64,000 nucleotides of DNA, from contig NC_134026.1 in NCBI RefSeq assembly GCF_964204645.1, forward strand, positions 20,680,150 to 20,744,149, read 5' to 3'. The notes under the pieces are model-generated. The model ran no database searches. It saw only the letters and a program-made list of their open reading frames with translations, and was not told the DNA's origin. The DNA is from Tubulanus polymorphus. Taxonomy: Eukaryota; Animalia; Nemertea. Position 1 is the first letter of the stretch. The number at the start of each line of letters is the position of its first letter. Of the stretch, positions 1-25,119 are shown in pieces. The translations under genes and the position numbers were made by a program.

Positions 1-618
1 TGATCGAAACACGCAAAACACCACACGACGAGCGCGATTTCTTAATTATGAATCATATTTATGAAACATGAAACGCCTTTTACTCGCAAACCAGCGTTCA
101 AATTGGAACGAAATCACGGGACCGAATATGAGTTGTAACCTTCCTATATGTCGTGACAAGATAAACATCTTTGTTGCCGATGTTTACACGTTTCTCTTCT
201 CAATTAAGCGTGTCTAATTAAGTCAGCCCACCGTAAAAGCATCGCGTGTTTTCAGGTTTGAACACGGTGCGGCATCTTTTGACCTGTTTCGTTAGTAAAG
301 TGTAAGGCATCAATTATAAAACACGATCGTACATTTACTAACAAGATGTGCTTGTTTGTCACGTCATTATTCCCCTTTTCTGGGCGAAAGTTGTTTCGAT
401 AATTTTGGCTTATACCGCGCCTGTTCAAAGGATTTTGTTGTTTAATTAATATCATTGACTCCCGTTTTAAAGTAGAAACATTAAGTCTGGTGTTTTTATT
501 TCGAAAACATCCTTGAATGCCTGTTTCATTGTTAACTTAAAATATATTTCAGTAAAGCAGTATTGACTTAGGCCCCATAACTCGGAGATTGACAAATCTG
601 ACATAATGATATAGATAA

Positions 619-815
619 GGCTAAAACAAATGGTACCTTGTTACTGCTGATCGGCGGGGTCATTTTGTAAATCGCTATTAAATTTGTGATCTGTTCATTT
701 CTATAGCTGCCGGGTCTGTTATGGTTAATGATGATTTTTTTTTAGTAATCTACGGTGCAGATAGACTAACTAACCTTAGCAGAAATTAGAAACAAGGTAC
801 CAATTTCTTTTAGCC
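619..815. mobile_element. Short non-autonomous element (MITE) with ~24-bp terminal inverted repeats
   Basis: Left end ggctaaaacaaatggtaccttgtt; right end aacaaggtaccaatttcttttagcc (reverse complement ggctaaaagaaattggtaccttgtt). No coding capacity. Confidence 0.55.
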
Positions 816-1749
816 CAAGCCACGTTATGCCTTTAGATTTGATTCAAATCAATGTAACTGATAATTATTGTTGTTGAACCAACATAAAACGTCACCCGTC
901 TTCTAATAAGCTGTACTCGAATTGATTTGGATTTCTCTGATAGGTTTAGAAATTTGTAGGATGAGATGAAAGACTGACACTTCAACACAATGTTCAACCC
1001 ACACATTACCCCAGTCCTTGTCTCATACTGCCGATTCGTGAAGTGACCTCTTATTTTATTGAAGACGTGTTTATTTGATTGATGATGGTAGAAATCATTA
1101 TCAAATCACGAACTTTCTATCATGTATACTAGCTCAATTATTTATATGATGTAGTAAATAAGATATTCTCTGGACACCTTGGAAATTTTCTATGAGCTGA
1201 TGGTAAGGCTATAAGTCTCTCTCTCACTCAAGACAAATCTCAAGTGATAAGCTTTTTTCTCCACTTAATGCCGATAGACGATAGTACTGTATATAAAGAA
1301 GTCGCGATTTTGTTCGCCCGAGGCAGGTCATTATCAACGCCTCGACGTGCTGACAGAAGTAAACTATCCGGCGTATGCACACAAACTTTATCCGAATCAG
1401 AAATATAATTGCTTTCTGTCAGGTTATACCAACCAGCCGGAACAGGTGAAGTTGCGCGAGCTACACTGTCTGCCGCTCTCATTGTCGGTACACCGGAGGA
1501 TGGTCGGGGGCGCGGGCGTTTTGACGAACGAATTATCCGGTAATTTCAGCTCGTATATGAATGTCGTTTAATAATGCTATCTAAAATCTTTAGTCATATG
1601 TCGCCCGAGGTCGATTTTCCGCGAACCAATTTTTTGCTCAGTGCATATAGTTCTTTTCTCGTGGATGCCAGCGTTGTGGAATGTCAACTGAGCACTTTCC
1701 AAAGAGCGGCTGAAAAACGTTTGAAAGAAAGCGGGGTGTAGTCAATGGT

Positions 1750-1935
1750 TCATGGATTCCCTAATCCTGGTAAAGGCCATCCGACTTTCTTGGTCGAATA
1801 TCCTTCTCCATCCTCCCTCGGCAGGGATTCGAACCTGATGATATCAGCTATACTCAGCCCCGGCACGAAACCCTGCCACACTAGACCGGGTGCGCGGGTA
1901 CATTCGCAGGTTTGCCACAAAGCCTGCGGCACGAA
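1750..1935 (-). repeat. GC-rich structured island with Pol III B-box (possible tRNA-derived SINE fragment)
   Basis: Minus strand contains GGTTCGAATCCC (B-box) and stable hairpins GGCAGGGTTTCG/CGAATCCCTGCC and GCAGGCTTTG/CAAACCTGC. No complete tRNA cloverleaf found. Confidence 0.3.
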
Positions 1936-3009
1936 TCAGATTGCTTGTTGCATATATTGCTTATGCAAATTTCACAAACTCAGATTCAAATCTTTATTCA
2001 GCATAAACAAGTGCACTGTTTGCGACTGACATTCATACATATATACATGTTACAACAAAGTGTGAAATATAATAATCTTCATCTGGTGAACCAAGAACCG
2101 ATAGAAACAGAAACAAATATGATAGACTATGTATGGTTTGAAAATTTAACAAAAATACTATTCAGATGTTTGGGTATACAATATACATATACATATATAT
2201 ATACAATGGTAGTTTCACGGAGAAGGAAAATCCGACCTAAAATAAAACGGGATTTCTGATTGGCTAATAATGACATCATCTGAACTGCGCATGTAGCTGC
2301 AGGTAACTTTGAATCGATCCAAAATTGTCGAGAGGACCCACGAAGTCTTGCATTATGCAGTAAAGCCTACGTGTACGTATAAACGATGCACACCGAATTT
2401 GCCTCGTTACGCCAAGTGTAGCATCGAACACGCTTAATCTATTTTATGTTCCAATAATCGCGGCTGGTTACTACGAGCAGTCGCAATCGGCATCAATGAG
2501 AAAGAGAAAAAAAACAAGATTGAGCAATTCACACCGACAATCGACGGTCGTCATTATTGAAGACATTTTGTCATCGAAAGTGCCCTACTTGACGACAACC
2601 GCACGGGGTATCGTAAATTCTCGGGTTTAGCGGTGGACCACTTGGCGTGTTACGATGATCTACCACTACCCCGCATCCTGCCAGATGGTGTAGATGTCGG
2701 GCTATTATCGTCCCGAGGGAAAAACGTCGAATTAACAGCGATTTGATGGCGATTTTCCGCGCAACGATTATTAAGAAATCGACGATAAAGGCCGTGATTT
2801 GTAATCGCCGTCGTCTAATACCCCACTTAGAGAGTAGTCGAATAAAACGCTATAATCCGTGTAAACTGTGTAGATGAATTAAGAAATGCCACAATATACT
2901 ATCATATGATGATACACTTCATTAAAACGAAACCACAACGCTTAGGCCGTTGTTCCATTCCACAAGTACTCTTTTATCAGATCGAAGAATCCGTTTGCCT
3001 TCAATCGTA

Positions 3010-3290
3010 CTCTATATTGGTCACGTGACCTTTTGGATAGTCCGAAACCTCCTTTCTGTCGAGGTGGTGTGAATCGGATTTCGTGTGGAGCCAACCGGAG
3101 ATTTCGGATGGAGACTTCGGAGGTCATAAAATAGTACGCACCTGATGATGGCTGTAAGTCAACGACCGAAACGCTGTGGCTTCGTTTCAATAAATTGTAT
3201 CATAAAAATTCTATCGTGGTACTTCTGAATTCACCCGCTTACAGTTTTCTTATTACATTTCGTAGCCACATGTCTAGAATTCCAATCAAA
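3010..3290 (+). mobile_element. Penelope-like element pseudo-LTR remnant with degenerate minimal hammerhead motif
   Basis: ggtcacgtgacc (3019-3030), then cac-CTGATGA-t-ggctgt/aagtca/acgacc-GAAACGCT-gtg (3139-3178) followed by AATAAA (3189-3194); this order is typical of PLE termini. Confidence 0.5.
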
Positions 3291-4493
3291 CATCCACGAC
3301 TCTGACTCATTATACATGTATAATACATATGATGTTTGTTCGAAACGCATTGCGGTGATTACGGTAAACGGTAAGATAGGCCAAATGTCAGGAACAATGT
3401 CGACCTCCACTTCATAAAGCGATGTCCTCGACGTTAATGCACGTAGGGGAGCTTACAGCTTTTACCCGAGAGATAATCCTTACCTAGACACATTAAACAC
3501 TCGTCGCACAAAGAAAATAATAGCCGCCGTCTGTAGACCTGACATGTCAAGTAATACGTCGGCGCTGTCTCCATCATACTCACATCCACCTGAGAGACTA
3601 GATTTTCGAAATACCATTCTAAAAGATCGATTTAAAAGACTGGCAAACGTTTTTATCGATTGAACCATGGATTAAGAATTGAAAGTTGAACTCAAAAATG
3701 GATGATGGAGTTTTGCTATGAATAAATGACAATGACAATTTCCATTTTCCGTTTTGATGGTAATAACTTGTTCCGTAGCTTATATATGCATGTGCATCAG
3801 CCGAGATTTGGATTTAAATCTACTCGGGTTAAACCATGATTGTGTTATAAAGCACGTAGGCGTTTGTATTCGGTATTTTGTCAGTGACTGCAGATCTGAC
3901 ACAAGCAACGATGGTCGTTTTCTAACTCAAATTCTCTCGGTTGATTCGATGCGATAGTGCACACGTAGTACACAGATGCGTTCTGTTTACCGTGGGTACC
4001 TTGGAATAAACTAGTTTTCTCATTTTTTTCCGAGTTACAAAAGCAGAATTAATCTCAAAATCACCTTTAACTAAGAAAACGAGTTTATTCCGAGTTAGAA
4101 ACAACTCGGAATAAACCTCTAAAAATCCATTTCAACTAAAACAAAAGTTAATGCCTAGGTACGAACTCAGAAAAAACCTCGAATAAACTTCAATTTTTAA
4201 AAATAGATAGATGTTTGTCCCTAGGACGCTTTCGTATGTACCCATCTTCTTTATCAGGGAAACATCAGCAATAACGTATATGAATCGATGAATTCTGTAT
4301 GAACACTACTAACGCAGATATATACAACTGGTTCTACGTAACAATGTCGCAATACTCGTTAGGATACGGTGTATCTAACGCCCTATCCGTTAGAACGATG
4401 ATCAAGGTGACCTCATAGCCGAGGAACTGTGTCGAATTCAAAAAGTTGTCTCGACAAAATTTAGCTATCGCCCCTAGAAACAACATATCCAAA

Positions 4494-7400
4494 ATGCAAT
4501 GGGCCCATGGTAATTTTTCGGAGTTCGAGTATGAGCCCGAGATCCGTTGTCGCCTATGGCTTGTCTTCTTCAAGTTCGCAGACATTCCTCGGACAATCGA
4601 CAATCTAACAACGCCATCGATATCATTCTTGAATATCATCATCTTTTGTCGTTTCAGATACCGCGGTGTTAGTTGAGTGTGAAATTCACCAAAACAATGG
4701 CCTCGGAGGCAGTCAAGAAGAGATCTCGTTGGACGTCAGCAAATGTTCACGGGAGAGCCCTGAACATCATATTATTACTTCGAACGGTCGACCGTCGTCG
4801 ATGATAGAAGACGGCAATGGAATTATACTCGAGGACCTGCAGATAACTGCTCATAAACTCGACGAAAAATACCGATTCCACGCGTTCGTGTCGTACAACG
4901 CCAACGACAGGCCGTGGGTAGAAAACGTCGTCAAAAGACTAGAAGGCGAGCCGTACTGTTTTCAGCTGTGTTTCGACGAACGGGACTTCGATCGGAAAGT
5001 GTCCGAGATTCAGAACATCGTATGCTCGATCATGTTGAGCGAACGAATCGTGATCATATTATCGCCGAGCTACGTGGACAACTCGTGGCAACAATACGAA
5101 GACACTATTGCCCACATCACGTCGATATCTCAACACAAACAACGAGTGGTCCTCGTCGTTCTGGAAGAATGCGAAATTCCCGACGCGCTGAAGTCGTTGA
5201 ATTTCATCTACGCTCAGAACAAGAACCACTGGAATAGACTGCTGCTGTCGCTGAGACATGGTTTGTATCATATTCCGATGCGGGGTTAAGTTCCTAGGCA
5301 ATAATCATACGCTATACACACCGCACCCCCTCGGCTTACCTGACTTCGCCCCGTGTTTTTGTTCGTTTGAAATTTAACCGTCACCTTGCCCTTGTTAACG
5401 GTTTAATCTTGTCAGTTTAGAAGTCTGTGAAATCGTATCCCATACATGAAATATGAATAGAAAGAACATCGCTTAAACTTTAAGAGCATTATGCGCCGCC
5501 TCTAACACCACTTCATGCCATCTTTCTATCCACATCTTTTAAGTTCTTTATCGGATACATATATCGTGTATAGAGGCAGACATATTCAAAAACTCCTTAA
5601 CATCTGATTTTCCTCATAAACGCTCGCGGTGCTCCGACTAGTTTTGCCCAACATAAATGTACGCGTAAAGGCCAAATTCAAAACAGACGAAATCTCGACG
5701 AATCAATTGAGATCGATTCTAATTTAACAACCGATTTTTCTTTCATGAACTACTATGATTTTCTACTCGAAACTCGAAGCAATTGATTAATTTATCTCAA
5801 TTAATTCGAGGATAGAAACAGAGAGAATTGCGACACGTTGTGATTTCACTGGCGACGGTATATAAGACCGTAATGAGCTTACGGGGTATATTTCGAAAGC
5901 GTTATTCGTCGGATAAGATATTCGAATATCGGTACAATATAAACGAACGTTGTTTAGCGTTGATTGATCAGCGTTTGTAACAGTTGTAGCGCTGGAATTT
6001 ACGCAGCGTGAATTCTTTGAATCGAGTTTGTAAATAGGCAGGTGTCATGGTTACTAGAAGGTTTTCCGTCTTGAATGGGCCACATTTCTCATTCTTGAAT
6101 TCTGGAAAAAGATAGTAAAAATAGCCATTTATCGATGCCAACGGAGCAGCAAGCCAGAGCTATTTCCGACGTCAAAACAAGCGTGCAGGGGGAACCAGTT
6201 AACTCTAATGCTGAATCTTGTCCATCATGAAGCATTAGCAATTGCTTCCTCGAAGCGCCGCGAGTTGCGTTCAGTGCCTAAGCGCATAACCTTTTAGCAC
6301 TTTAAAGATGTATTGTAACTTCTCAATGCACAACGAAAGCTAAGCACTGCTTATAAAGTAAATATTTTGAGCAAGCTTTTACATAGTTTGTGTTGGTTTT
6401 GTTTTCAGATGGAGTCCACTCGAGCGAATCAACTAGTACAATGTGGTCGATCGTATCTACGCCTCTCGGTAAGTGCCGGACAGAACGTTAAAATGAAAGA
6501 AACGAGATTACGCTGACTTAGCGTTCTCATTTCGCGTCGACCCCGTCACATAATCATTTCTACCGTTACACGACCAGCTTTTAGCAAAATAAGCAATCCA
6601 ACATCGTCTTTGACTATAGATAAAACCATCGGAGGGTCGTCGGTGGTATTGATATGGCACTGACCCACAGACAAATACTACGTACGTAACAAGATAAATG
6701 AAATTCAACAATAGGAAGAAGGCAACGATTTTTGAAGCTTGATGAAAACATCATTGACCCGGGAATCAAATTTTGTGGCCGCATTCAGATCAGGTCATGC
6801 GTGCTCAATGATGCAATTGTTTGCTTACGAAATCATTCTGGTTGGCACATAAATACGTGTCATTTGTGCTAATGAAATCAAATCACGACTTCGTTGGGTT
6901 AATAACATTTTTAAGCTTATTTTGAAAACAGTTTAAAGCAAGCGATTCCTGAGTGCTAGAACTGGACAAAAGTAACAAAAGTAATTATTTGGATGTAAAC
7001 ACATAACTGTAACCTTTTTTAGTGTAAGTAACATTAGGTGTTGGAATACTATAATGGCGTTGTCTCGTGACTCGTCACTCAGCCCGCATTACTGTGTTTA
7101 GATATAGCAACGTACGTATCACATAAAAAGGTAAACAACGCGGGAAGTACATTGTATACATAATTTCCGGTTTCCGCTAGAAATATATGACTCCCCACCA
7201 TATTTCGATTGACAAGTGATACAGGTTTATTTTTGTTGATTTTTTTCTCATTTTCTGGTTAAGTTGATACGGGAATACTAGAATCTTTCGTGAGTTCCAT
7301 GAGTTTTAAACCATAACCGGGAATGGACCTACGAAGAATCCTGCCATAAAGTAGTATTGGCGTAATTGGCTAATAGGAAGGAATGTTTTAATTGCCTCAG

Positions 7401-10400
7401 TGCTGTGAAAGGTTGCATTCCGTGGGATAGACGAAGCTCGAGTTAAATATACGTGAATGAAATTAAATTTCGACCAGGCTCGTAGAAAGGAATTTTAATG
7501 GGCGGAAGAGAGCTTTGAGGAACCAATTATTTCCATAAACTTGTAAATGTGTAAACGAGTTCATCTCTCCTTATGATTAACTTAAAGGGTGTTCAATCCT
7601 GGCGCGTTATAAAAGTCTCGTTCTCCGTCGAGAATTAATTGTTTAACGACGACATCGCGTCGAATCATCGAACGCATCCCAAGCGGAATTAACAGATCAT
7701 CTCCTGTTAACTAATCAACGGTTCGCACACGTTGTCCTAGTAGTAAATCAATTAATGGTTGGCGGAATGACACGCGCAGTGATTCGCCGGAAGCCGACGG
7801 GTGAAGACGTGTCAGTGACAGCAGCGGAAATAATGTTCTCGCGGCGCGGCGCGCTCGACTCGACGAAATTACGGCGAATTCGCCGAAATCGAGTATCGAT
7901 CTTTATAAAATGACGAGTCTGAAAAGGCAAAACCGTAAAGAATAAAGAAATGAAGGTTGCGTGTCTGAAAAATATATAGCTTTGAAATATGTCCTTTGGG
8001 TTCGCCGCTAAACTCGTGTCGAAACTGAAGTTATTTTCCCATAGATTGAACGAGGAATTCATGAACCGGGTTGCGTTATGTTTAGGATGGGCTAAATATG
8101 ATATCGAAGTCAAGACGGACGACGAGTTCAAATTTCCGTAATGTCCGTGTTAAACAAAAGCGAATAAAATAATTGAACTTTCATCGATAAGTTAGTTCAT
8201 GGCAAATTTCTACTGTGCTTACTGGATTTCGTTGGAATTCCGCTGTGCTTACTAGATTTCGTTGGAATATACCGAAAAAGGGAAATGAAGGATACGACAT
8301 CTAACCGTTGGTATCCTTAAGGTTACATTATGGGACCTTAAGGATACAGCGTATCGTATGGTGAACGATACGCTGGTCCCTTGTGGCTAAGACGATTCGC
8401 GTCGTGCCAATTTCAGTTTCAATTTATTCATGATAAAACCAAAGTATAAGATTGTGAGTGAAGAAAAACAACAACAAACAAACAAAAACAGAAAGAATGC
8501 ACAATGAAAAAAAAGATAAAGGAGAAAGAGAAGTAATACAATATCTAATATACATACAATATTCTTAAGTGATATTTACAAGCCCTATATAAATTTCGCG
8601 ATATTTAAGAAGATTTGTTTATTGCCAGGTACGGATTGACAGGGCTCTGTGTGACCGCGGCTACTATACGTGGCCAATCATTAAATATATGTTCATGACA
8701 TTAGAAACCGACACGTCCGACAATTGACCGTATGTCATAAAAACAATTTGTAAGAGTTGTTTGCTTTATTTTCTCAAACAAATTCAGAAACGAGGTCCGG
8801 AAATATATGAATGATTAGGAATGAAATCTGGAATTTCTAAGAAACGAAACGTTCGATTGTAGTATCATATTGTTTATGAAAGAGTGGGGTAGGTGGTAGG
8901 TCCTGATCAGTGGCTCTGCTTCGAACCACTATAGCAGGGCCGCGTTCATCGTGTATATATATATGCACATATATTCCTTGTCGATTTGGGAAATTTCCGT
9001 CACAATCAACGAAACGCAAGGTGAATTCGGTACGTTAGCGATGATCATCACTTCTCGGTAGCCAATTCTCTGTAGAACCCAAACGTCGCAAATAGATCAA
9101 ATAAACTACACGCCACAATTGATGTCGAAAGTATGTTCCCCGGTTTATACTTGTCGCTCGCGATTGTGAGTGAGTGTGTGTATGTGTGCGGATATGACGA
9201 AGTAGCCGGGGATGTCACGATTCGATAGCATAATAACTGCAATCAGGCAGAATTTAAGACTAGCCATCGCGTCGAATCAGACTATCCATTTAGAAATCAA
9301 ATTGTCGGGTCTCAGTTAAGGGCTCTGGGGATATTTTATTTGCCACCATATACGTCTCTGTTTGTCTCGGGGGATGTTGAGCATATGATTCGAACATAGT
9401 TTCACGCAGAGAAAGTAATGAATTTTGCAGAATTCGCAATATTGCGTCGCTATGTGCGCATGTGCCTATATTGCAGATGTAGGTAAAAGGGTGTACAGAA
9501 ATAATGCCACCGGAAAAAATTCCACCAAATTTTGCAACATACGAAAAAAAATACTGGTAAAAATGCCACTTTTGCGTGGCTTGAATGAAATTATTCTGAT
9601 ACAAAAATAACTCTGTCCAGTGCTTTATTTCTACATTGAACATTTGACCTAGACCCCGTCTTGCAGAAGTTCGTATTTTCTAACGGGAACGGTGACGTTT
9701 GCTGCTATGTAAAAAAAAACTTTAGTTCAAAATCCCTCCTCGATGGCACGTCCGACCATCATACACATTCCTGCGTGGTTATATTTTCAGGTTTCAGTAA
9801 TGGACAGTTATTGGGCACGGTCAGCGCAGAAATTCATGGTTGTCTGAAATCGAGCCTCGTATTCAACAAAACCGAAGTACCCAATGCATTCTTCAGTCAA
9901 GAAATTAACGTACGTAGTTGTTTGGGCAAGTGTAAGTTTCCATCGGTTGAAGGACGTAGACAATTTATGCGTTGCGGGTGGATAAATTTGACTTTCAGTT
10001 TACGCTTAATGATAAATGCGGGGTATGAAAAAATGAATGAAAGATCAAATTTGACACTTTAGAATTATTGTTGCAGTTGAACACATCCACTTTCCCGGGA
10101 ACCATCTTCGTGCGTGTCGAGATTATTTTTCACGAAATCCATGTCTGCCACGCAGAAATGCGAGATCTTCGATAATCAATAACGGTTCAGCATCTATCCG
10201 TCTGCAGAAATGAAATGGATTTGATGGATTTGAATTTTCGGAGTAAAACTATACCACCACTTATATAGAAACCGATTGTCGCGAAATAGAAAAAAATTAT
10301 CGGCAATGCCTTTTTCGAAATTGCGTTATACCGATGGCGCGTGTGAATATATTTCGTATTTATAGTTTCGAAAAGATGTGGATCCACGCGAGACGGGTTT

Positions 10401-13400
10401 TAACTGTCGCAAAGTGGTATATAGTTAATGATTTATTCGTCCGCAAGCGAAGCCGGCGGCAATGGGGAGGGATTTGCGACGCTTTCCCGGCAATCCGTAA
10501 CCGATATACCAACCTTTAATCCAATAGAGAAACTTAACGCCGGCGACAACACGCGCGACATCGGCGACTATATCGTATAACAGCGTTTTGAGTGTGTATT
10601 AGAGAAAAGCGAAAAACTTTCGAGAGAAAATGAAGCGCTTCGGGCGTGGTTATAATTGCTTGTTTCGACAACAAAAACATCGTATCGGCCCGTAGCGATC
10701 GTGTTACGGGCGTTTATCGCGAACTGATGAAATGTAACTTCGTCCCTTGTTGTCGTTTTGATGGAAATTATGATGGAATTATTGACTGACGCACGCTCAT
10801 ACATCGGTTAATATCGGCAGTTAGTTCGTCGACTGTTCGAAACCTTATTATCTGTTCGGCGTCGTCGTCGTGTACGTGGTTCGTTAACTGGATCACAACC
10901 GCGGTGTGTGTTCATCGTTCAACTTAATACTTCGTCACAGATATGCGCGAATCATTAAATAATTAATACTTAGCCGTCGCCGTATATTCATCGGCGCGTC
11001 ATTCCGTTTATAGATTTCCCATTTATGAAAGACGAAGAAGCCAGGGCAACACCGATAACTTGCGGCATTCGTATTCTTTGAGAAAGCCTCGCACTAAAGA
11101 AAATTACTAAATCATCAATATTGGCTACATTGAAATACGTTTAATTACAATAGGGACGTTTCCAGTTACCAGACGCCTTTCTCACGATACATGACTTTAA
11201 TTTTTGTGTTAAAAGGGAGATGGAAGACAATAATTCGCGCTAAAGGTTTTACTGTAAAAGAATGTTAAAATTTGTCCAACATTATACGGAACCTGTGGGA
11301 CCGCCTCGAAATGGCGCCTGGTAACTGGCAACTTCCCATCGTGAAATTAAAATTCCCGGCAAATGAAACTTTACCAGGTTTGTTTATCATGTGAGATTTG
11401 AGAAAATTATTACATCCGGCGATGGCCCCTGGGTGTTCATGAATTTCTCTCCTTAATTCAATATATGTATCTAAATTCCGAGTATCTCCACAGTTCATTA
11501 TGGTGCTTAATATCAATCGCCTACGTATCTATTATTTACAGATTACTGACGGTGAATACGTGAAGCTAATTGAAGGTCTAGGATGCGAAGATTACGGTCG
11601 TTTACTGTCGTGGATACATTCAACCGTCCCTACTATCATTCTGTTATCGTTTTTCGCCGCTTGGTGCGTCGCTTTCATCTGTATCATAGTCTTATTCCCC
11701 GAAAATACTCCCAGTAAGTATTACAGCTAACATGGAAATGATATTTCTATGATTCACTCGAAAAGCTTGGAATAATCTGGCACGTATGATAAAACTATCG
11801 TTTAAACTTTCCGTTGGAACATCGAGTTTTTCGAGCGAATGACTTCATATATCGCAATATAAAATCGGTCCCCGCGTATGATCCCTCGGCACATTCTGAT
11901 GATATCGCCGTCTTGACTTAAGTTTCCGTCGAATTACTGGACCATCGATCGGGGTGTGAGCGAGCTGTATAGATGACAGGAACCCGTGTGAGATAGATAG
12001 ATTAAACTCGATCGATCTCTTCTTCTGTCGTAAGGTGTAATTTCCTTTTAGTCAGTATACACCCCCAGATTCATCGAGGCCACTTAACGACAAGATACCG
12101 TCATCTGAAGAGCTGCGTTGATGAAGAGCCCTTCAGGCGCTAATTCGGGTCCCTATTAACGGGTTCTTTCGCATCATCGCCAGATTTCCGGGATCGCCTT
12201 TCGGTTTGAACGAGATTCATTTGCGCGCTTTAATAGCATCGACAATCTGAAATGATGGTTCAAACCTCGATGTGTTATGAAAATCTATATTCTGTCAAAT
12301 TTACGCTACTGACGTCAGAAAAAGAATTGATCTTTCCATCTTTTGATAAATAATCAACAGTTGACGGGCAAAATGCATCTAGTGATTCATTTTAGAGACG
12401 ACCCATACCACGATTGCGTTGTGAGTTAAAATTAGGTTCATTTCCAAATATTCGATTTTAAAGATCCTTAGATCTAAATAACCTTGTAGAACTAGGTCAT
12501 GTATAGAAAAAATTAATGATTGATTTACGCTCCAACCTGAGCAGTCAACCTAATAATCAAACCTTTAGGAAGAAGGTGTATCCCAGTTCAGGTATGCCAG
12601 TACATCCTTGCCGAATATTAAAAGGAATCCTCCACCGTGTTTGGTACCCTTACTCCAGACAAGAACAATCCTATTTCATCATAACTTAAAGCCTATACTA
12701 AAACTATTGCAACGTTTATGTGACAACTTTTTCATTCTAGGTATTATTTTTGGGGCCCTGCCCTATACGCATATTCAAGCTACTAACCTAATTGTGGTCT
12801 TTTACCATCAAATTATCATAATTGTATTTAGATGATGAGATGATCTGTATTTGATTATAGGTACACTCCCTGTTCGTTTATGCGTTTTTGTACTGCCCGC
12901 TATTCTGATAGTGGGTGGATGTTTTCTCCGGTGGCGAAAGGTCAGACAGGGTAAAGAAGAGGTAAGTCTTCGAATTTTATTCACACATGCTACATTTGAG
13001 TCGTGTTGAAAATATGCTATTTCCAAGAATTTCAAATCGTTGATCTTGCTGTTTACCAAGATAATGTCCTCAGAAATGGGGATATCTGCAGTTCATCAGT
13101 TTACTTTTACATTTATATTTTTACATGCCTTATAAAAGTATCATTTCTTTCAGTTTTCTGTGAACATGTTCAGTCGAAGCGTTTTGATAAACAGAGATTT
13201 ATATTTGCAAAGTCGACCAGTCATTGCATCCACTTCCAGGACCAAAGACGATCATTTTAATGTATCCTTTCAATTACATTACACTGATTTTAGGCAACTT
13301 AACGCTTAAAAAAGAAAATGTTCAGCGGCCTAAGGAAATGACATTGCTGCATTACACTGCGCATGTACATTAATAGTTTTCCGAATTTTGGAGGCATGTG

Positions 13401-14748
13401 AGGGGTGTTTGAAAGTTGAAACTGTGGTGAGAGATTAGGACTGCTATGTACCAGTAGTCCATGTTGCAAGCGAGTGTTTTGTCACAACTTTTTTGGATTT
13501 TCCTCAATTCCTCCTATAAACTTAAGTCACACTATATCATAATCTACTATCATGACTACAACGTTGTACCAATTATTTATACAAATTATTCAAATTAACT
13601 CTAAAGGTTTCTGACTGATATATTTATCATACGTTATATTTTCTGAGCTGTCTGCAGATCTACTTCCTTTTTTACAACCGAGTTGAATGTATAGTAAGTA
13701 TTTCAACGCAAATCAGAACAAATTAAATCCTGGGGTCAAACTATATGAAATGAGTGTGAATTTGATTTTTCAAAAGTCATCGGAGCATATCATTTTATCA
13801 ATCTTACTGTTCCATTATAGGACGAGCCTCTGCACCCGTCATATAGTCATTGCTAATTAGATGTCCAGTTTTCTGGCAATTGTTTTAGATTTTATGATGA
13901 CGTAGCCTTGATGGGTATAAAACCCAGGGGCACACGTCTCTCTCTCTCTCTCCTATGGTCACATGCTGGGCTCTCGTTCGAGTGTCAACTTTTAAATAAA
14001 ACAATCGACCTTGCAATCAACAACCGAAGTTTCTCATTCCTGGGCTCGGACTCATCCATTCTCGATCATCTCTCGATTATTTGCTAAATCACAACCAAAT
14101 GCATTAAGCTGTTATTCCTTTTTTCAGGAACATATAACCTTGTTTTTGCACCATTGCAACGATAAAGACGTAGTGAAATTGTCGCGGTTAATCGAGGTTT
14201 ATACGGCTTGTTCCAGTTATATGGAAGGGGTAAGGACCATTCACTCGCGCATTATAGATATCAAATACCGAGACAAAATGTCGATCTTTAATTAGAAAAT
14301 TCGAAATAAAACTCGAATTACCGAAAACAATAGTATGCAAAACATTTCCGAGTCTATCGCGGGATTCTGTCCCCGCGGGCATCTCGTCTGCCGCGACATT
14401 ATGCAAATCATGGCAAACTGATCAGACTAATTTGCATAATGATTTGCATTTTTTCAGAGTAGCATAGCGGAACGTTTAGCTGTGATGATGAGTTCACCAT
14501 ATGCTATACAGATGGTCTTCAAAAAGTTACCTCATCCGCTCGAACAGCGTCACACTCGTAAGCGCCAGTGTCTGTGTCAATTCGTCGAGGAATTTCTGAC
14601 GGCGTATCTGCCGTGTTTACGCCACGAGGGGGCGTTCGATGTCGGACACTTGCAAATATTGTTTCTACGCTATTTGAACTGCCATTTCAAACCGGACCCC
14701 GTTATTATGCATACACTCGGTATCGGGGTAAATCATTTGATGCCGTAG
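4494..14748 (+). CDS. TIR-domain / TMEM268-like two-TM fusion protein, ~535 aa, 10 coding exons
   Basis: Phase-consistent GT-AG exons 4494-4509, 4658-5260, 6409-6468, 9791-9909, 11542-11713, 12861-12961, 13154-13261, 13658-13693, 14128-14229, 14458-14748 (1608 nt, open, TAG stop). TIR motifs YRFHAFVSY, LCFDERDF, IILSPSYVDNSWQQYE. Then FSNGQLL, two hydrophobic helices (TIILLSFFAAWCVAFICIIVLF; LCVFVLPAILIVGGCFL), IYFLFYNRVEC and LPHPLEQRHTRKRQCLCQFVEEFL, collinear with TMEM268 motifs as I recall them. The first mini-exon/start codon is the least certain part. Confidence 0.85.
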
Positions 14749-15168
14749 TTACCGATTGCGTAAATATTTCAAGCCCAGCTAAAAAGCGATTTTATTGTTC
14801 ATTATAAGCGTACGTCTGGGACGCATTAGTCTGCACTAAAACAACCAGACCTTCAAAAACCCGATTCGTGGTATCTTGTTTCGTTAATGATGTACAGTTA
14901 GATCAAGTTGTTATTTTATTTTGTTTTCTTTGATCGTTGTTTTCAGTGTATTTAGCTCTAAAACAAAACCATATATATTGAATATATAAATGTTAATGTT
15001 GCAATTATTTGTATTTAAGTATTGGTTTTTGGGGGTAAATGGTGACCAAATTGTTTATATGAACTGACTCGTTCTTACGTTATAAAACTTTATACTATAA
15101 AACTGGGGTTGAACCACTGGCAGTCGAGGATGTAAGATGTGTATACATAATTTTTATCATCTACTGAA

Positions 15169-15174
15169 AATAAA
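15169..15174 (+). terminator. Probable polyadenylation signal of the TIR-TMEM268 gene
   Basis: AATAAA ~420 bp after the stop codon, followed by a T/GT-rich downstream element (tttttcttgtaattgtttgtttgag). Confidence 0.5.
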
Positions 15175-16914
15175 GCTTCGAACATTGACGTTTTTCTTGT
15201 AATTGTTTGTTTGAGTTTCTTTTTTCTCTCCAAAGATTTACTCGAACTAGCGACATTATTCCACCACAGGAATAAGGACTTATCACTGGACGATACCAAC
15301 GAACTCAGAACCTGATATCGACTGTCGATCGATTTTATACGTGGTGGAGTTGAAATAGTTGCAGAACATCGCCCCCTTAGCGGAAGGTGGCTTACACCAC
15401 AACCTTTGTTGCTCCACAGATTGACTCAAGAAAACAGTGACTCAAACTGCCATATTACGGAAGCGCGGAGACATCATTTACGAATATTAGACATTCATTT
15501 TATGTCGAGTTATATCTTAACAGAAAATCATTTACGGTTAATAAAAAATTGTGCCGATTTTAAGTCGAGTTATTATCTCGACCTTAATTCATTTACAATT
15601 GATAAAAAGTTTTGTCGAATTTATGTCGAGTTATTAATAAAAAGATTTGCCGTTGTTTTGTTGATTTTTACCATTTACGCACCCTTTCCCGTCAAGATAT
15701 CGGCAAGCTGCTGATAGTTGCAACTGAGGGCAAGATATCTTGCCATTAGTTCCCCCTATTCTGAATAGACGGCGTATGGGTTTATTGCTTCTAAACATTA
15801 TTTCTACGTTCAAGCAGTGTCCAGCAACAATCTACGAATAATTTGCACTCAGATAGAGTGACCTCGATCGCTCTTCTCGATCTTTGAAAGGGTGCACTTT
15901 AGGTGTTGACAGCGCAATATGGGCGCGTGTCTTCTGAAGACCCCTGGCAAGTTGGAAGAATTATAAACCCACAAGGGTCCTGCACTTTATCCAACCCATC
16001 GTCTATGATTTATTGAAGGTTTTTTCATCAAACCACTTCAAATAGTATTTATAAAATATCCATGGATAATTAACTAGATGATGGAAATTCATTTTTTGAT
16101 AAATTTGACCATTCGTTGACCCCGTTTTTAGGGTCCCTAACAGGACCCCTGAGTCCAATCATCTAATAAAGGAGTTTCCAGTTTCTAGGCGCCATTTTGT
16201 GGCGGTCCCTCGAGGTCCCCATTGTTGCGATGATTTGCGCTCATTTTTAAAAAACATATGTTTAGATTGAATATCATATAGTTCTGCAGTCCCTTGCTCG
16301 ATGAACTTAATTTATACACCATTTTGAAGGAAATGAAATGCATACCACTCATGGATGGACACTAGAACAAAATCTCAGTTTTTATATATATTTGAATATG
16401 CGGCGCAGCTTAAAGTAGCCCAACTAGACGTTGACCCCCTAAAACAGAATATCAAATGGGGGACAGGAGCCCCTTTGAATATAATATTGGAATTTTATAT
16501 CAGTAAGGTTATCTGGTCGATGTTTTCAAGCAAGAAGGTTGAGATTCAGTAAATTCATCGTATGATCCCAGGATGAGGGATTACCAGAGAGAGATATGTG
16601 TTGAAATATGTCCTAAGCGTTTTAATTGACTGGCACATTTCACCATGGACTCTAAAACGTTTTGGGCCATCATGATTTCACCGAACACAAAATCGGCGCT
16701 AGGCTGGACGGGCTACATGCGACAATTCCCCAACTGGGCCGTTCAAACTTCAAAGCTGGACAAACCGGATCCCGAAACAAGCTAAACGAATTGCCCCCGC
16801 CAGAATACAGTACAAACAAGATATGGGTTATAATCACAAACCGGTGAACGCTCATTGTCGTCGGATCTGTTATCGAGGGTAGACGCCCATACACGTATCT
16901 GACGTCGGTTCGAG

Positions 16915-19845
16915 ATGTTGTCAACTGCTGAGGAAAATGTTTTCGATGTTGTTGTAATTGGAGCAGGAATTGAAGGGTCCTGTACTGCTTATCAATTGGC
17001 GCGCGATGGCATCAAAACGCTTCTATTAGAACAGGTCAGGTACTTGGCATCTTTAGAAAATCTTCCTTGCTTTATTCTATTAGAGGGTATAATTACTGAG
17101 GTGTATGATTTAAATGACTAACAAAGTGTTTCACTCTGTACATAATGTTGCATTATACCGACCAAAATGATATTTCTATGAAAGTGATACCGTATTGCTA
17201 TATACTACATATTAGCTTTTTCAAAGCATAGAGAAGTGAAAAGCCTTTTCTCGTCGCTTTTTAATTCATTTCTTTTCTATTCTTTATTATATAATCAGTA
17301 TAGCCATCAAAAAGATTTTTGAAAACGCTTTCGCACGCATGTACGTTTTCGTCTCACCGACGTTCTAAGAGCACTTGAACAATACGATTATCTATATCTA
17401 TATGGACACGTTCTATTGATTGGAGTAAAAAACAAGTATATATTGTCAGTTTCTGTACATTTCAGTTTTTATTACCTACCTCAAGAGGCAGTTCCCACGG
17501 CCAGACCCGGTGTACTAGGAAATTCTATTGCAATGAAATGTATATCAAGATGATGCAAGATGCATACGACGAATGGTCGACGATTGAAAATCTGACCGGG
17601 CAAGAATTATACAAGTATATATATTTAATATATCAGAAGGCACAACAGTGAATCCCCTTCACTGAGGGTTCGATTACATGTATAATACCTCAGTAAAGGT
17701 AGGCGAGCCCTGAATTATAGTAGAGATGATCAATCGAATCATATCCAAGGGTGATTTAGGGTGGACTCTGGTACCAAACAACAGTTTATCTCAGTAATGC
17801 CTTGTGCCAATGCTCTGTGAAGAAAATATCGAATAATAATCGTTGGTCGGTCGGTTGGTCGCTCTGACCGACGCAGGGGCCCCAATCTTTTACCCGAAGC
17901 GAATATGTTATAAGGGTGGATATTAATTCTCTTACAGACAGTCGGGGATCTTATTCGTCAGTAGGTATGAGAATGATAATGAAAGTGAATCGTTGAAGGA
18001 AATGATCGCCCAGAACAATATCAAGCACGAGGTTTTGACTAAAGACGAAGCTATTGAGCAGTTCCCTATGCTTAGATACGATGACGATGCTAATTTTTTC
18101 CTGCTTGAACACGAAGCCGGATTTTTGAAATCGGACGAGTGTCTAAATGCAGCGCAGGTAAGGCATGACTACTTCAATCCAGCTGGAAAGGGCGTGGGTT
18201 AGAGAAGTTCATTAAAAAGAAAGATTTCTATTATCTCATCCTTTCTAAGTTCAATCCATAAAAATGGATAATTCATTTCGACTTCTCGAAAGAATTGTTT
18301 CTCTTTTTGTATAAGAAACTGTTTAAGCGGTTTGGTGGAGTTCTGCGTGATGGTGAAATGGTACAGAATATCGTCCCTGGTGAAATAGTTCAAATACGCA
18401 CGCAGGAAAATCTGTACACAGCTAAAAATGTCGTTATAACCGCCGGACCATGGACTTCCAAATTACTGAAACCGCTTCGAGTTCAACTACCCATCCAGGT
18501 AGGCAGAGTCACTCACATCACACAAAAAGGTTTCCGTACAACATACGATAAGCAATTTGGTGGCTGGGAATGCCATTTCTTCATCGGTGGTTTTCCTTTT
18601 ATTCATTTCTACAAATCTTTTGACCTTTCATCACGGAAACCCAGCCTGATTTTGCGTTTCTTTGCAGCCTTTGCGAATACTGGTCTGCTACTTCAGAGAG
18701 AAAATCGCCGGAACGTACAAAATGCCACAGGTTCCGATTACACTTTACAGAGTTCAAAACAGAGATATCTTCACGATGCCACCAATCGAATATCCAAATC
18801 TCACGAAGGTACAGTTTGACAAAATGTCAAACCCGAGTTAAACGTCAATATATCTAACGGATCACTTTGGGACTGGCAATTTCTGCGTGTCCATCAGTAT
18901 CCTATTCTATAAATACGTAGGTGGTATACTGCGATGGTCCAAATGTGGATCCCGATAACACTGATAGAAATCCAGACGGAAGCAAGGAGTATCTTGAGAA
19001 AATCTGCAACCACGTAAAAGATCATTTACCCGGTTTGGAACCCATACCGTCAATTATTGAGACTTGCATATTTACCGTGAGTCACTATACATATTGAATG
19101 CATATTTCATCTCGAGTACAAAATATTTGTTTTTAATGTTACCCCACAGATTCCAAAACGAAGTCCATATGAATACACCACTTTATCAAACCACTGACTT
19201 GTTTCCGTTTCATATTCTAACATTTCCGCAGATGACCCCTGATGGATGCTTCATACTTGATCATCATCCACAGCATAGAAATATTGTTATCGGTGCCGGA
19301 TTTTCAGGTGAATTTGTTTATAATTTAAGACACGAAGATGATTTAATCAATTAATGAAATAATCGAAATACAAGGGTTCGTGGGCAGGATATAAGCGTAG
19401 TTAGTTACCATTGGTCAGAAGGTTGAAAACCCTTGTACCCCTTATATATAGGGAATAGTGAGAATGCCTAAAGCCCACCGCTCACGACAAAACGGAAACA
19501 AACATTTTGGAAACCATTTTTATCGCAAACGCACTCGACACAATGAGACGCTCGGAAACAAGTTTCTGTCTCCTGTTTTCGTGTTTCGTGTTACCTCTGC
19601 ATTGTGTGCATTGGGTAACGTCAATCGTTTCTTTCCTCGTACCCTTAACCGATGTCTAATTTTCTTTCGTGACAGGTCATGCATTCAAGTTAGCGCCAGT
19701 AGTTGGTAAACTGTTGAAGCAGTTAGTTACCGGTGAAAAACCGGCTCACGATATGCGTCCTTTCAGCATGCAACGATTTGGCAAGATCCCGGAAACAAGG
19801 GCGCCGTATCAAGGCTTCATTATAGAGGCCTTGAAAATACCTTGA
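16915..19845 (+). CDS. PIPOX: Sarcosine/L-pipecolate oxidase-like flavoprotein, tandem copy 1 (~404 aa, 8 exons)
   Basis: Exons 16915-17034, 17466-17614, 17938-18157, 18316-18498, 18668-18808, 18921-19076, 19232-19307, 19676-19845, all in phase. Rossmann [51 protein letters not shown]-terminus ..ALKIP. Confidence 0.93.
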
Positions 19846-19953
19846 AATTGGAATGGGCACTTTGAAAAGGGCAAATTTGGCAATGTTAGGACTGCGAGCG
19901 AAACATTGGTTAGCGGGTTGACCAGTTCACCCCCTCTCTTAAATCCACCCTTG
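19796..19953. mobile_element. hAT-like MITE inserted in the last coding exon of PIPOX copy 1
   Basis: Starts caagggcg and ends aaatccacccttg. Absent from copy 2; the sequence after it (gcaaagcatgcattggttt) aligns with the copy-2 end gaaaagcacgctaTAGttt. Confidence 0.6.
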
Positions 19954-20773
19954 GCAAAGCATGCATTGGTTTGTGATTGTTAATTTTTCTAACCTGTATA
20001 TATAAAACGATTAATTTTAATTAACAGAATAAATCATTACCGAATGTAATTACCGAAGGTAATACCGAATGTAATATTAAGTATCAATAAAGCTATTTTG
20101 ATGATTTCTAATCTTAAAAATTCAGTGTGCTTGTGTATTCATGTATTCCGGAAAATTGTGTGAAAATCAACGAATATATTTTCGAAAGTAAAAGAAATAC
20201 AACTTTATGACACGTTCGCAAAGGTGAAGCAAACCCTACATTAGATCTGACGTATCTTGATGCAAGAGATCGTAAATTATCAGCTCAAATTGGAGCGGTA
20301 CCTATAGTCAACAAATTTGAAATTGGCCGATATCGTGGTGTAAAACTTGATAAAATGATGTCTTTTTTGTAGCGAACACGAGATTGAAAGTGAATTCTTA
20401 GTTTGAAGATTTTCCGTTTTATCAAATGGTTGATCCAAATTTTGCAAACCTTGTACAAATAAATGATACACTTTGATAAATGAACAAATAAAGAAATGAT
20501 TGATAGGACAGTTGACTTACATTTTACCTTTGAATACCTAAATTCGTGATAGTCGAAAACAGGTAGAATAATATAAGTTTAATGAGGCTCATGAAATGAA
20601 AATAAAATCCCGCGTTTTGTGCAACAGCTGGACAGGTATGTTTATATAGCCCTTTTCACAGTCATCAGTTTTTGATTAACCACTGTAGTCAGTATAGACG
20701 GATGAACGCTTATTGTCGTCGTATCTGGTATCTCTACAGGGTTATAGTCGCCCAAATCTGGTGTCGGTTCGAG

Positions 20774-23700
20774 ATGATGATTTCAACTGCTGGCAATAGC
20801 TTTTTCGACGTTGTTGTGATAGGAGCAGGAATTGAGGGGTCCTGTACTGCTTATCAATTTGCACGCGATGGCGTAAAAACACTACTATTGGAACAGGTCA
20901 GGCACTCGTCATCTATTTACTCTACGTTACTCGGGGTAAAGGTAAAAAGCTTTACAAATGATATAATTACCGAAGGAAATCATTAACAAGGTTATTCACC
21001 AAGAAATTCATGCGGACGCCTATAGTACATATTTCAGTGCTATACAGGCCAAAATGATATTTCTATTAAAGTGATACTCTTTCCTTTTTAAAGAACGTTT
21101 TTATTAGCGATTCGATGTGCACTAAAGTGATATACAGTAGTTACGTATATACAAGGTTTCTTTTTACGAAGTGAAAAGGCCGCTTTTTCTATTATTCTTT
21201 TTTTCTTCATTTTCTATTATATTATTTGTATAGGTATTGAACAGGTTTATGAAGTTACTTTTGCGCTTAACGTTCGTCCCACGTTGATTTTTTACATGTA
21301 TTTCAACTAAACTCAGGTTATTTACAAATGACGATTAGGGCGTGATTGATTTGACACACAAGAGAAAATTTGAAAGAAAAATGATAGTAATTTATTTTTC
21401 ATTTAACTTACATTTACATGAATGTTTACAGCAAAGAAACATGAATTATAGTTAAATGAAGGTAACGGTGAGAGCCTTATTAGGCCACTGCATCTTGGTG
21501 CTTAGAGTGCAAAGATGTACAAGTGCAGGGAATTGAAAAATGATAAATAATAACAATGCTGGCATATTGGAATGTTTTTTATGACAATTGGTATGAACAT
21601 GCACACATTTCTTAATTCATATTCATTTTTGAGTTGCATTAGAACTTCGAATTTTAAAGAGGTTGGATTGACCAAAAAAAATGAGGGATTGAGCGCCATC
21701 TCACAATTACTGAAAAATTTACAACAACAAGATAAGAGCCTTTGGACTTAGGGTTATGTACGTGGACATACTTATCCTATATTTAAGACTAATATATATC
21801 GTAAGTTTCTGTACATTTCAGTTTTTATTACCTAGCTCAAGAGGCAGTTCCCACGGCAAGACCCGGGGTACTAGGAAATTCGATTGCGATGAAAGTTACG
21901 TCAAGATGATGCAAGACGCATACGGCGAATGGTCGACGATTGAAAATTTGACCGGGCAAGAATTATACAAGTATATATCTATTGATAAGACGGCGGGGTT
22001 TCATCACCATGCATCAGATACTTTTTGGATACTTGAGTAAAAGTAAGCGAGCACAAGATCCCGTGAAGATTGGTACCAAAAATTTAGTTTATCTCGGTGT
22101 AGTAAACTATGCCTTGTGCTAATGCTCGGTGATGAAAATAGACATACTGAATAATACATGAAAATCTACCAAATATTTGGTATTTACTTAAATATAGGTC
22201 GAAAATCAATTTCATGAAAGAATATTCGAATAGGGTTTTTACTCCCGCTCAACCATTGTTTATTGATGGATTGATTAATTTGTGTTGATTTAAACTTATT
22301 TTGCCTGCACAGTAATACGATGGATAATGATATAACAATATATAAGTTTATTTCTTTACTTAAAAGTACGTACGATACAAAAAAAGAAGCGGTTAACATT
22401 TCTACAAACACAAAGCAGTGCATCCAGTCTAACCGGTGCACTGGCCTCGATTTTTTACCCGAAACGAATATGATTATGTTATAAGCATGGATAGCATTTC
22501 TCTTACAGGCAGTCGGGGATGTTATTAGTCAGTAGGTGTGAGAATGAAAATGAAAGCGAATCGTTGAAGGAAATGATCGCCCAGAACAATATCAAGCACA
22601 CGGTTCTGACCAAAGACGAAGCTATTGAACAGTTCCCTATGCTTAGATACGATGACGATGCTAATTTTTTCCTGCTTGAGCACGAAGCCGGAATTTTGAA
22701 ATCGGACAAGTGTCTAAATGCAGCGCAGGTAAGGCATACGCCTACTTCATTTCGGCTGGAAAGGAGCAGGTTTAAATGGTTACATTTTCACTGAAAAGTG
22801 AATTTCTATTATCTTATCCTTTCTAAGTTCAATCCATAAAAATGGATTATTATTAATTTTGACTGCTGGAATATATGTTTTATTTTTGTATAAGGAATTG
22901 TTTAAGCGGTTTGGTGGGATTCTGCGTGATGGTGAAATGGTTCAGGATATCGTCCCTGGTGAAATAGTTCATATACACACGCAAGTCAATCTGTACACAG
23001 CTAAAAACGTCGTTATAACCGCCGGACCATGGACTTCCAAATTACTGAAACCGCTTCGAGTTCAACTACCTATCCAGGTAGGCGGAGTTACTTTCATTAA
23101 ACAGCTAAAAATATGGTTTAGAACAAAAGGCCTAATTACCTTCAGTTATTGAAACTAAGTAGACCTAATTGGGTCTAATTGAAGAAACAAAGTATGCGAT
23201 ATCATTAATTTTTCATCGGTTTACCATTTCTATAAATCTGTAGACCTTTCATCACGAAAACCTAGCCTGATTTTACATTGTAGCCTTTGCGAATACTGGT
23301 CTGCTACTTCAGAGAAAAAATCGCCGGAACGTACAAAATGCCACATGTTCCGATTACACTTTATAAAGTTCAAAACAGAGATATGTACACGATGCCACCA
23401 TTCGAATATCCAAATCTCACGAAGGTAAAGTTTGATAAAACGTCCGACCCTGGTTTATACAATAATCAACCGGACGTTCGACAGGCATTAACCATTTTCC
23501 CAAAACGTGTTCGTCCGGGCATCGCCACCCCTATGGCAGTACCGCGGGTATTTTCTTATTTAGAAATGAATTAGGGTGTTATGTCTGAACCATCAAGTTT
23601 AGACATAACTTCACTATTTGTGAAAAAGTGCTCGCCCAAACTGAGGGGTTAGGTACAGACAGCAGATTTACAGCAGCATTACTAACGGGACTTGGCATCT

Positions 23701-24428
23701 CCGATACATGTATCTAATTTGCACGATTCTCGTAGGTGGTATACTGTGACGGTCCAAATATGGATCCTGATAACCCTGAAAGAAATTCAGAGGCAAGCAA
23801 AAAGTATCTTGAGAAAATTTGCAACCACGTAAAAGATCATTTTCCCGGATTAGAACCAATACCTTCAGTTATTGAGAACTGTATATACACCGTGAGTTGA
23901 TACTTATATACATATTGAATACACGTCTCGAGTACATAAATAAATTATGTAAATATTCAAGCTGTTCAATATATATCGCTTTCGAATGTAGCCTAATACA
24001 TGTAGATTCCAAAAACGGGGTCCATATGGTTACCACTATCAAACCACTGACCTGTGTCCGTTTTTTCTAACATTCCGCAGATGACCCCTGATGGAAGCTT
24101 CATACTTGATCATCATCCACAACATAGAAATATTGCTATCGGTGCCGGATTTTCAGGTAAATTCGTTTGATTTCAGACACAAAGCTGATATAACGAATTA
24201 ATGAATGAATCGAAATGCCCAGGATTTTTGGGTATGGGATAGTCTACTAGATTTCTTCGTATCCCTGCCAGGTTTATGATTTCTTCTTTCTTGACAGGTC
24301 ACGGATTCAAGTTAGCGCCAGTAGTCGGTAAACTATTAAAGCAGTTAGTCACTGGTGAAAAACCAGCTCACGATATGAACGCTTTCAGTATGCAACGATT
24401 CGACAAGATCCCGAAAAGCACGCTATAG
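20774..24428 (+). CDS. PIPOX: Peroxisomal sarcosine/L-pipecolate oxidase-like, tandem copy 2 (~392 aa, 8 exons; most canonical)
   Basis: Exons 20774-20896, 21822-21970, 22509-22728, 22895-23077, 23284-23424, 23736-23891, 24081-24156, 24298-24428. Motifs [32 protein letters not shown]; PTS1-like C-terminus PKSTL*. Confidence 0.93.
21390..21710 (-). mobile_element. Non-LTR retrotransposon (RTE-X-like) 3' end remnant in PIPOX copy 2 intron 1
   Basis: Minus frame [30 protein letters not shown] resembles the PS..KF..LM...N...L..L..FI C-terminus of such ORF2 proteins; ends in AATAAA on the minus strand; absent from copies 1 and 3. Confidence 0.5.
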
Positions 24429-24469
24429 TTTCTCTATATCCCTACTATTTATTTGTAAATTTCGCATGA

Positions 24470-25002: not shown

Positions 25003-25119
25003 TAGCTCGTTCCAGTCACCAAGGTGTTTTTAAGGTCAGTATAAACGAGTAAACACTTATAGTCGTCGGATCTGTTATCCAGGGTAGTCGCCCATACACG
25101 TATCTGACGTCGGTTCGAG

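Follow-up and report, generated by a model that had tools for sequence, protein, structure and literature searches.

The window analysed here is a 64,000-nucleotide stretch of the genome of the ribbon worm Tubulanus polymorphus (contig NC_134026.1, positions 20,680,150 to 20,744,149, forward strand). It holds a gene whose product joins a TIR domain to what, on sequence comparison, is a TMEM268/DUF4481 module, complete though divergent, with a two-helix membrane hairpin. By the same comparisons the gene is an already annotated member (RefSeq XP_074641279.1) of a TIR-TMEM268 family that is old and apparently unstudied, and falls into a nemertean-mollusc subfamily with an atypical TIR domain. We propose, with a probability of roughly 0.45, that the protein is putatively a TIR scaffold without enzyme activity, tethered to a membrane, which would enter assemblies of Toll-receptor or adaptor TIRs and likely damp or re-route them. 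Residue numbers throughout are those of XP_074641279.1 (P0001 among the proteins collected).

In a protein search, XP_074641279.1 gave a 100% match to the exon 2 query. A splice-site check of positions 4000-15500 yielded ten GT-AG segments of consistent phase, joining into a single open frame of 535 residues that ends at 14748, and residues 7-535 of this model are identical, letter for letter, to residues 22-550 of the RefSeq protein. A preliminary description of this DNA had proposed such a ten-exon frame. Its exons 2-10 (4658-14748) stand: the junctions 5260/6409 and 6468/9791 and all later ones are the same in RefSeq, and each exon is 58-86% identical to the Lineus longissimus orthologue (66% for exon 2; 74% for residues 236-550). 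Its first exon (4494-4509) is unsupported: positions 1-4600 contain 15 ATG-to-phase-1-donor candidates, of which it is one, and the peptide that it encodes resembles none of the four annotated Lineus alternative starts. The RefSeq N-terminus (about 20-21 residues) differs from this start and is partly conserved in one Lineus isoform; it has no coding match anywhere in the window, and the annotated first coding exon presumably sits upstream of window position 1. Because the four Lineus starts are spliced to the same acceptor, Tubulanus may also have an additional first exon.

In three shorter matches (P0011, P0013, and P0024) the similarity is lost, or the protein ends, exactly at the end of exon 2, as expected if that intron is shared. 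Contigs of three sequencing runs showed no splice joint at any intron among the matches listed, a result with no bearing on expression; contigs of one run (X1) span 4472-11326 and 11297-16000 with no joint in them, and the exons are therefore linked in DNA. No second TIR domain or second TMEM268-type module was found elsewhere in the window. The features of the gene are as follows:

4494..4509, + strand: exon 1 of the preliminary description; unsupported
4658..5260, + strand: exon 2; low-confidence N-terminal tail (residues 22-88) and whole TIR domain (residues ~92-221, bases ~4870-5259), with a BB-loop lacking the usual Pro-Gly and with W164-x3-E168
6409..6468, + strand: exon 3; Ser/Thr-rich linker (residues 222-241) of low model confidence, 16 of 20 residues identical in Lineus
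9791..9909, + strand: exon 4; start of the TMEM268-type module, with N245-G246, two beta strands, and P272
11542..11713, + strand: exon 5; helix, predicted first transmembrane helix (residues ~309-332, bases ~11623-11694), and short loop
12861..12961, + strand: exon 6; predicted second transmembrane helix (residues ~340-361), then a basic stretch (Arg/Lys at 362-369)
13154..13261, + strand: exon 7; long helix with conserved N385, and a beta strand
13658..13693, + strand: exon 8; IYFLFYN strand and C419 (13688-13690), the first candidate metal ligand
14128..14229, + strand: exon 9; two helices (residues 421-454)
14458..14748, + strand: exon 10; H486 (14551), C492 (14569), C494 (14575), the 55-residue extension typical of the subfamily, and the stop codon
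15169..15174, + strand: first AATAAA 3' of the stop codon (one of 4 before 16900); candidate polyadenylation signal

At two coding positions of exon 10 (14685 and 14743), run X1 and the window disagree; one change is silent and the other replaces the last residue, Pro, by Ser. High-copy repeats lie at 535-1068 and 1603-3204, presumably within the first intron of the annotated gene, with a summed depth of 2,800-10,000 vs about 40.

The TIR domain noted in the preliminary description was recovered by two Pfam profiles, both above their cut-offs (PF13676, E 3e-15; PF01582, E 6e-11). Its closest solved relatives by sequence are the TIR domains of TLR10, TLR1, TLR15, TLR2, and TLR6; by fold, in a PDB search with the whole model, they are those of TLR1/10/6, MyD88, Hydra TRR-2, and oyster TIR-STING. 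On these similarities we class the domain as TLR-type. The top VIA match of the TIR domain was the oyster TIR-STING TIR (6wt7; Z 17.7, root-mean-square deviation 2.3, 136 aligned residues), with Hydra TRR-2 at Z 16.9; the 6wt7 match is confined to residues 84-238, i.e. to the TIR domain. The protein had also been described as neither a TLR nor an interleukin-1 receptor (IL-1R), and we concur: in Pfam comparisons of the whole protein no STING, leucine-rich repeat (LRR), or immunoglobulin (Ig) family matched at E up to 1, and the TIR domain precedes two transmembrane helices.

DUF4481 (PF14800) is the TMEM268 family (PMC6748091). The Pfam DUF4481 profile scored 16.7 bits with the whole protein, 17.9 with the module alone, 18.9 with the last exon, and 23.5 with the Lineus protein, all short of the 25-bit cut-off, and the match of the whole protein was limited to profile positions 249-293. 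A bridge profile was made from the post-TIR parts of 14 relatives, all above the DUF4481 cut-off and none belonging to the subfamily of this gene. With this profile, residues 243-499 scored 71.9 bits, aligned to its positions 14-287 (of 294), against at most 7.8 bits for 500 shuffles that preserved the transmembrane segments. DUF4481 was also the sole Pfam family matched by more than one of 13 modules (all 13 at E up to 10). Hence the complete TMEM268 module of the preliminary description is borne out from end to end by the bridge profile and by the predicted structure, while the Pfam score stays below its cut-off.

The structure was modelled from a 32-row alignment (mean predicted local distance difference test, pLDDT, 79.9; predicted TM-score, pTM, 0.63); single-sequence prediction reached a mean pLDDT of only 37.8. 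The model begins with a disordered N-terminal tail and the TIR domain; after a linker of low confidence come a strand-helix unit, two helices (309-332 and 338-390) separated by a five-residue turn, a beta hairpin, and a helical C-terminal domain. In the Atlas, comparing predicted models on both sides, it matched a DUF4481 cluster with a TM-score of 0.63 over 252 residues, ranked after a mollusc TIR cluster (0.73); residues 241-428 alone matched a DUF4481 cluster at 0.69 over 169 residues. The three top hits of an Atlas feature search were DUF4481 clusters as well (0.86-0.88), which we treat as leads only. When PDB folds were searched with the whole model, only TIR-like folds came back, the results being filled by the TIR domain so that the C-terminal half was barely tested, and the module profile found nothing meaningful among PDB sequences (best E 0.6). 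The idea that the module resembles Erf4/GOLGA7 gained no support in the PDB-sequence, Atlas, or Pfam comparisons.

Hydropathy exceeds 1.6 in the two transmembrane helices only, and the loop between them has about 6-9 residues. This short-looped pair and the motifs NGQLL, IYFLFYN-x3-C, and RHT-x4-CLCQFVE are all present as first described, except that the last motif is not terminal, 55 residues coming after it. From the lack of an N-terminal hydrophobic segment, the very short loop, and the basic residues after the second helix, we infer, in agreement with the preliminary description, that the N- and C-terminal ends both face the cytosol. In an alignment of 42 modules of about 20% identity, H486 is conserved in 41, C419 in 39 (3 gaps), and C492 and C494 in 40 each (2 gaps). 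The simplest reading is that these four residues likely form a Cys3-His structural zinc site, for which they are candidates by conservation.

How widespread is this fusion? A word-based search with residues 236-550 found two nemertean proteins only, and a HMMER search showed this to be a sensitivity limit: it returned 3059 proteins at E up to 0.001, of which the best 150 contribute to the family figures given here. Among 164 proteins collected (including the 14 profile seeds and four near-copies), 153 have a TIR domain, 62 the module, and 52 both. In Pfam comparisons of 39 chosen relatives, DUF4481 matched 24 at E up to 0.05 and 13 with at least 25 bits, the echinoderm proteins scoring 97-113 bits. 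Members with both parts come from nemerteans, bivalves, gastropods, a cephalopod, Capitella (R7URB0), sea stars, urchins, a sea cucumber, two hemichordates, amphioxus (Branchiostoma LOC118424733), and the ray-finned fish Erpetoichthys (LOC114662614), i.e. from six phyla, a spread that the preliminary description had understated. The Erpetoichthys protein has no Pfam DUF4481 match at E 0.1, yet scores 31 bits with the bridge profile. The echinoderm records include Asterias, Acanthaster, Lytechinus, and Strongylocentrotus; those of Asterias, Acanthaster, and Strongylocentrotus are named 'transmembrane protein 268-like', and four echinoderm records already bear the labels PF01582, PF13676, and PF14800. 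No arthropod, nematode, or cnidarian is among the named family records, their absence itself not having been tested for, and no stand-alone TMEM268 sequence was returned among the matches listed.

The order common to the family, namely TIR domain, N-x motif, transmembrane hairpin, and C...H-x5/6-CxC, is also that of the Tubulanus protein. A quick tree of 77 TIR rows placed all 44 TIRs that bear the module on one side of a branch (Shimodaira-Hasegawa-like approximate likelihood ratio test, SH-aLRT, 97), together with four rows of two tandem-TIR proteins. This tree was midpoint-rooted, drew its sample by likeness to XP_074641279.1, left out eight fragment-like or odd-model proteins and the extra TIR copies of most non-module proteins, and was made with no approximately unbiased test; it is compatible with a single origin of the module-bearing TIRs but does not show it. 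A quick module tree placed the gene in a nine-protein clade (SH-aLRT 100) that includes two nemerteans, a Logan record, oyster, mussel, Babylonia, and Argonauta. After the CxC motif, these nine proteins continue for 47-97 residues, vs 11-37 in seven others checked.

Three further observations concern individual records. Two Branchiostoma lanceolatum proteins with TIR and DUF4481 (CAH1271012 and CAH1271011; P0050/P0166) are publicly named 'TLR2', and Pfam shows no LRR in them. Two single-frame members (P0054 and P0083) appear to share one ENA contig (17,672 nucleotides, the longest for both), suggesting intronless tandem copies in some lineage. One protein of 1279 residues (P0023) has four TIR domains and a SAVED domain (E 2e-25), and in the tree its TIRs fall with rows of the animal type.

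The TIR domain of the subfamily departs from those of its relatives at two sites. In the BB-loop, the Tubulanus protein has Asp-Arg-Lys where TLR10 and TLR1 have Pro-Gly-Lys, and thus lacks the Pro-Gly characteristic of scaffold TIRs. The BB-loop Gly is absent from nine of ten subfamily TIRs, the tenth having it within an insertion of a doubtful model, vs present in 34 of the 36 other module-bearing TIRs. (The ten include P0020 and P0022, which were placed separately, and not the partial P0017.) The Glu of the W-x3-E motif likewise occurs in 34 of the 36 other module-bearing TIRs vs four of the ten, the remaining six having Gln or Arg. It is kept as E168 in the Tubulanus protein and its Lineus orthologue, within a W-x2-YE motif common to TLR10 and TLR1. 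We take its position to be equivalent to that of the SARM1 catalytic glutamate (helix C).

Since the subfamily has lost the BB-loop Gly and varies at the Glu of the catalytic position, we consider a tethered TIR regulator more likely than a STING-like sensor enzyme; having no ectodomain, the protein cannot itself sense outside ligands. In the proposed mechanism, the TIR and C-terminal domains would both face the cytosol, C419, H486, C492, and C494 would bind one structural zinc, and the TMEM268 module, by analogy with human TMEM268 and integrins, would locate the protein to membranes of the secretory or endosomal system and hold the cytosolic tails of membrane receptors. With its altered BB-loop, the subfamily TIR would enter an assembly via other surfaces without extending it, so capping or diverting the signal, and relatives with an intact BB-loop may signal.

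Several published results are consistent with this scaffold. The TIRs of TLRs and adaptors belong to a scaffold class that assembles through the BB-loop, and BB-loop changes abolish TLR4 and TLR7 signalling (PMC8635717). Human TMEM268 has two transmembrane segments, is found in the endoplasmic reticulum and the plasma membrane, and binds the C-terminal region of ITGB4 and the C-terminus of CD11b, which it contacts through its two halves and protects from degradation (PMC6748091, PMC11169502); this binding to C-terminal regions fits the predicted cytosolic ends of the worm protein. Amphioxus TIR adaptors of unusual build are negative regulators (PMC6043800, citing Peng 2015). Other points weigh against a non-enzymatic scaffold that damps signalling. 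E168 is retained in both the Tubulanus protein and its Lineus orthologue. All ten subfamily TIRs are still recognisable and exon 2 keeps its 66% identity in Lineus, which indicates constraint but not its kind. The BB-loop serves enzyme TIR assemblies too (PMC8635717), and an altered loop therefore fits an inhibitor and a TIR with another partner equally. Lastly, integrin binding is known for human TMEM268 only, whose kinship to the worm module comes via Pfam and Atlas clusters, not a tree.

A broader, somewhat doubtful proposal sees in the whole family an undescribed third class of membrane TIR proteins in animals, in addition to TLRs and IL-1Rs. Such a class would have had a single origin before the protostome-deuterostome split and survived in some vertebrates. 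Through a zinc-bound TMEM268 module it would signal from, or police TLRs on, intracellular membranes; members whose BB-loop and Glu are intact would be active, while the subfamily of this gene would serve as a decoy. The class would also explain the effect of TMEM268 on innate immunity.

The protein could instead serve non-immune trafficking or adhesion, its TMEM268 module keeping an ancestral job of stabilising membrane proteins and its TIR domain drifting as an interaction module for a non-immune partner. The action of human TMEM268 on integrin turnover (PMC6748091, PMC11169502) points this way, as do the better conservation of the module than of exon 2 between Tubulanus and Lineus, the loss of canonical BB-loop residues from the subfamily TIR, and window neighbours that are not immune genes. 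We nevertheless regard this explanation as rather improbable, given the canonical TLR-like box with its BB-loop Gly in 34 of the 36 other members and the altered anti-bacterial responses of mice lacking Tmem268 (PMC11169502).

The preliminary description had preferred a STING-like sensor-effector, in which the cytosolic His/Cys domain would bind a ligand or sense membrane state, oligomerise, and turn the TIR domain on as a signalling seed or as an enzyme cleaving nicotinamide adenine dinucleotide (NAD+). This found no positive support and seems unlikely. Both domains are indeed predicted to be cytosolic, E168 is present here and a Glu in most module-bearing TIRs outside the subfamily, the fusion has been retained in six phyla, and the oyster TIR-STING TIR is the top VIA match, though within 1 Z of Hydra TRR-2. 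However, that match covers the TIR domain only, the C-terminal half has no STING family match at E up to 1, the nearest solved TIRs are scaffold TIRs (TLR10 and TLR1 among them, with the same W-x2-YE motif), and only four of ten subfamily members have the Glu. The available text of PMC6748091 and PMC11169502 names no small-molecule ligand of TMEM268. A sensor-effector fits members with an intact BB-loop and Glu better than it fits the Tubulanus protein.

That gene prediction merged a TIR gene with a separate TMEM268 paralogue is highly improbable: the RefSeq model is a prediction and intron 3 spans 3.3 kb, but Lineus is annotated with the same fused protein and conserves all nine exons, fused frames of 436-579 residues lie on Logan contigs of 1.55-1.9 kb, too short for introns (P0003, P0010, and Mytilus cluster members), fused single frames lie on 12-18 kb ENA contigs (P0034, P0048, P0054, and P0083), both parts occur in 52 of the 164 collected proteins, and the window has no second TIR or module.

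Comparison with known proteins helps to place the regulator favoured here. With TMEM268/C9orf91 the worm module shares the whole-module profile match, the predicted fold, and two adjacent transmembrane helices (human protein: PMC6748091), whereas the N-terminal TIR domain, the 55-residue C-terminal extension, and the sub-cut-off Pfam score set it apart; it is probably a paralogous, TIR-fused branch and not a TMEM268 orthologue. The database records with TIR and DUF4481 agree with the worm protein in domain order and in the four Cys/His residues, and their TIRs group together with that of the worm in the tree, but the worm subfamily differs by its C-terminal extension, its lack of the BB-loop Gly, and its variable Glu. 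TLRs and IL-1Rs have in common with the worm protein a TLR-type TIR, in sequence and fold, and a membrane-bound state; unlike them, it has an N-terminal TIR domain, two transmembrane helices, no signal-peptide-like segment by hydropathy, and no LRR or Ig ectodomain. The Crassostrea gigas TIR-STING (PDB 6WT6/6WT7) resembles it in having an N-terminal TIR of similar fold and a C-terminal cytosolic domain, but the likeness is limited to the TIR, the worm C-terminal half being DUF4481-like with its own transmembrane hairpin.

Animal TIR proteins are well surveyed, and the gene is less surprising in that marine invertebrates often shuffle TIR domains and that it is already annotated. Invertebrates share further conserved TIR proteins outside the TLRs, the ecTIR-DC families (Gerdol et al. 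2017, doi 10.1016/j.dci.2017.01.014) and, from amphioxus, bbtTIRA-D (Peng et al. 2015, doi 10.4049/jimmunol.1403003); as PMC6321704 and PMC6043800 cite them, they have been either proposed or demonstrated to act as adaptors or negative regulators. The ecTIR-DC families 3, 5, 8, 11, 14, and 15, as given in a placozoan supplement, differ in architecture from TIR-DUF4481. Of the amphioxus proteins, bbtTIRB and bbtTIRD are reportedly endosomal membrane proteins. We found no description of a TIR-TMEM268 fusion in full-text literature searches, outside which lie the texts of Gerdol 2017 and Peng 2015; these and the oyster TIR-STING paper may bear on the point. Nor is one described in the available parts of PMC6321704, PMC11169502, PMC6748091, PMC5549309, PMC6043800, PMC8635717, and PMC10279657, and DUF4481 is absent from the supplements of PMC6321704 (supplement 1), PMC8662601, PMC11788884, and PMC4284660. 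The earlier statement that no characterised example is known agrees with the literature searched, although database records carrying both labels do exist.

The family reaches from ribbon worms to a ray-finned fish, yet no description of it was found in the literature searched, and one member bears the public name 'TLR2'. If members do regulate TLRs, an old component would be added to the TLR pathway, and the poorly understood TMEM268, without which mice are less well defended against bacteria, would be tied to TIR signalling. The four near-invariant Cys/His residues and the natural contrast between intact and BB-loop-altered subfamilies provide handles for testing.

Other genes also lie in the window. 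A multi-exon gene at 37000-44600 (- strand) has Glu/Arg-rich coiled-coil and acidic low-complexity exons, with no useful Pfam match. Exons of a KIND-domain protein lie at 57904-58272 and 63444-63764 (+ strand; PF16474, E 2.6e-4, below the cut-off). Closest to the gene, at 16900-28400 (+ strand), are three tandem copies of a gene for an oxidase dependent on flavin adenine dinucleotide (FAD), with Pfam DAO matches, which we take to be of the sarcosine/pipecolate oxidase type; their matching exons, at about 16903, 20765, and 25108, are 75-100% identical.

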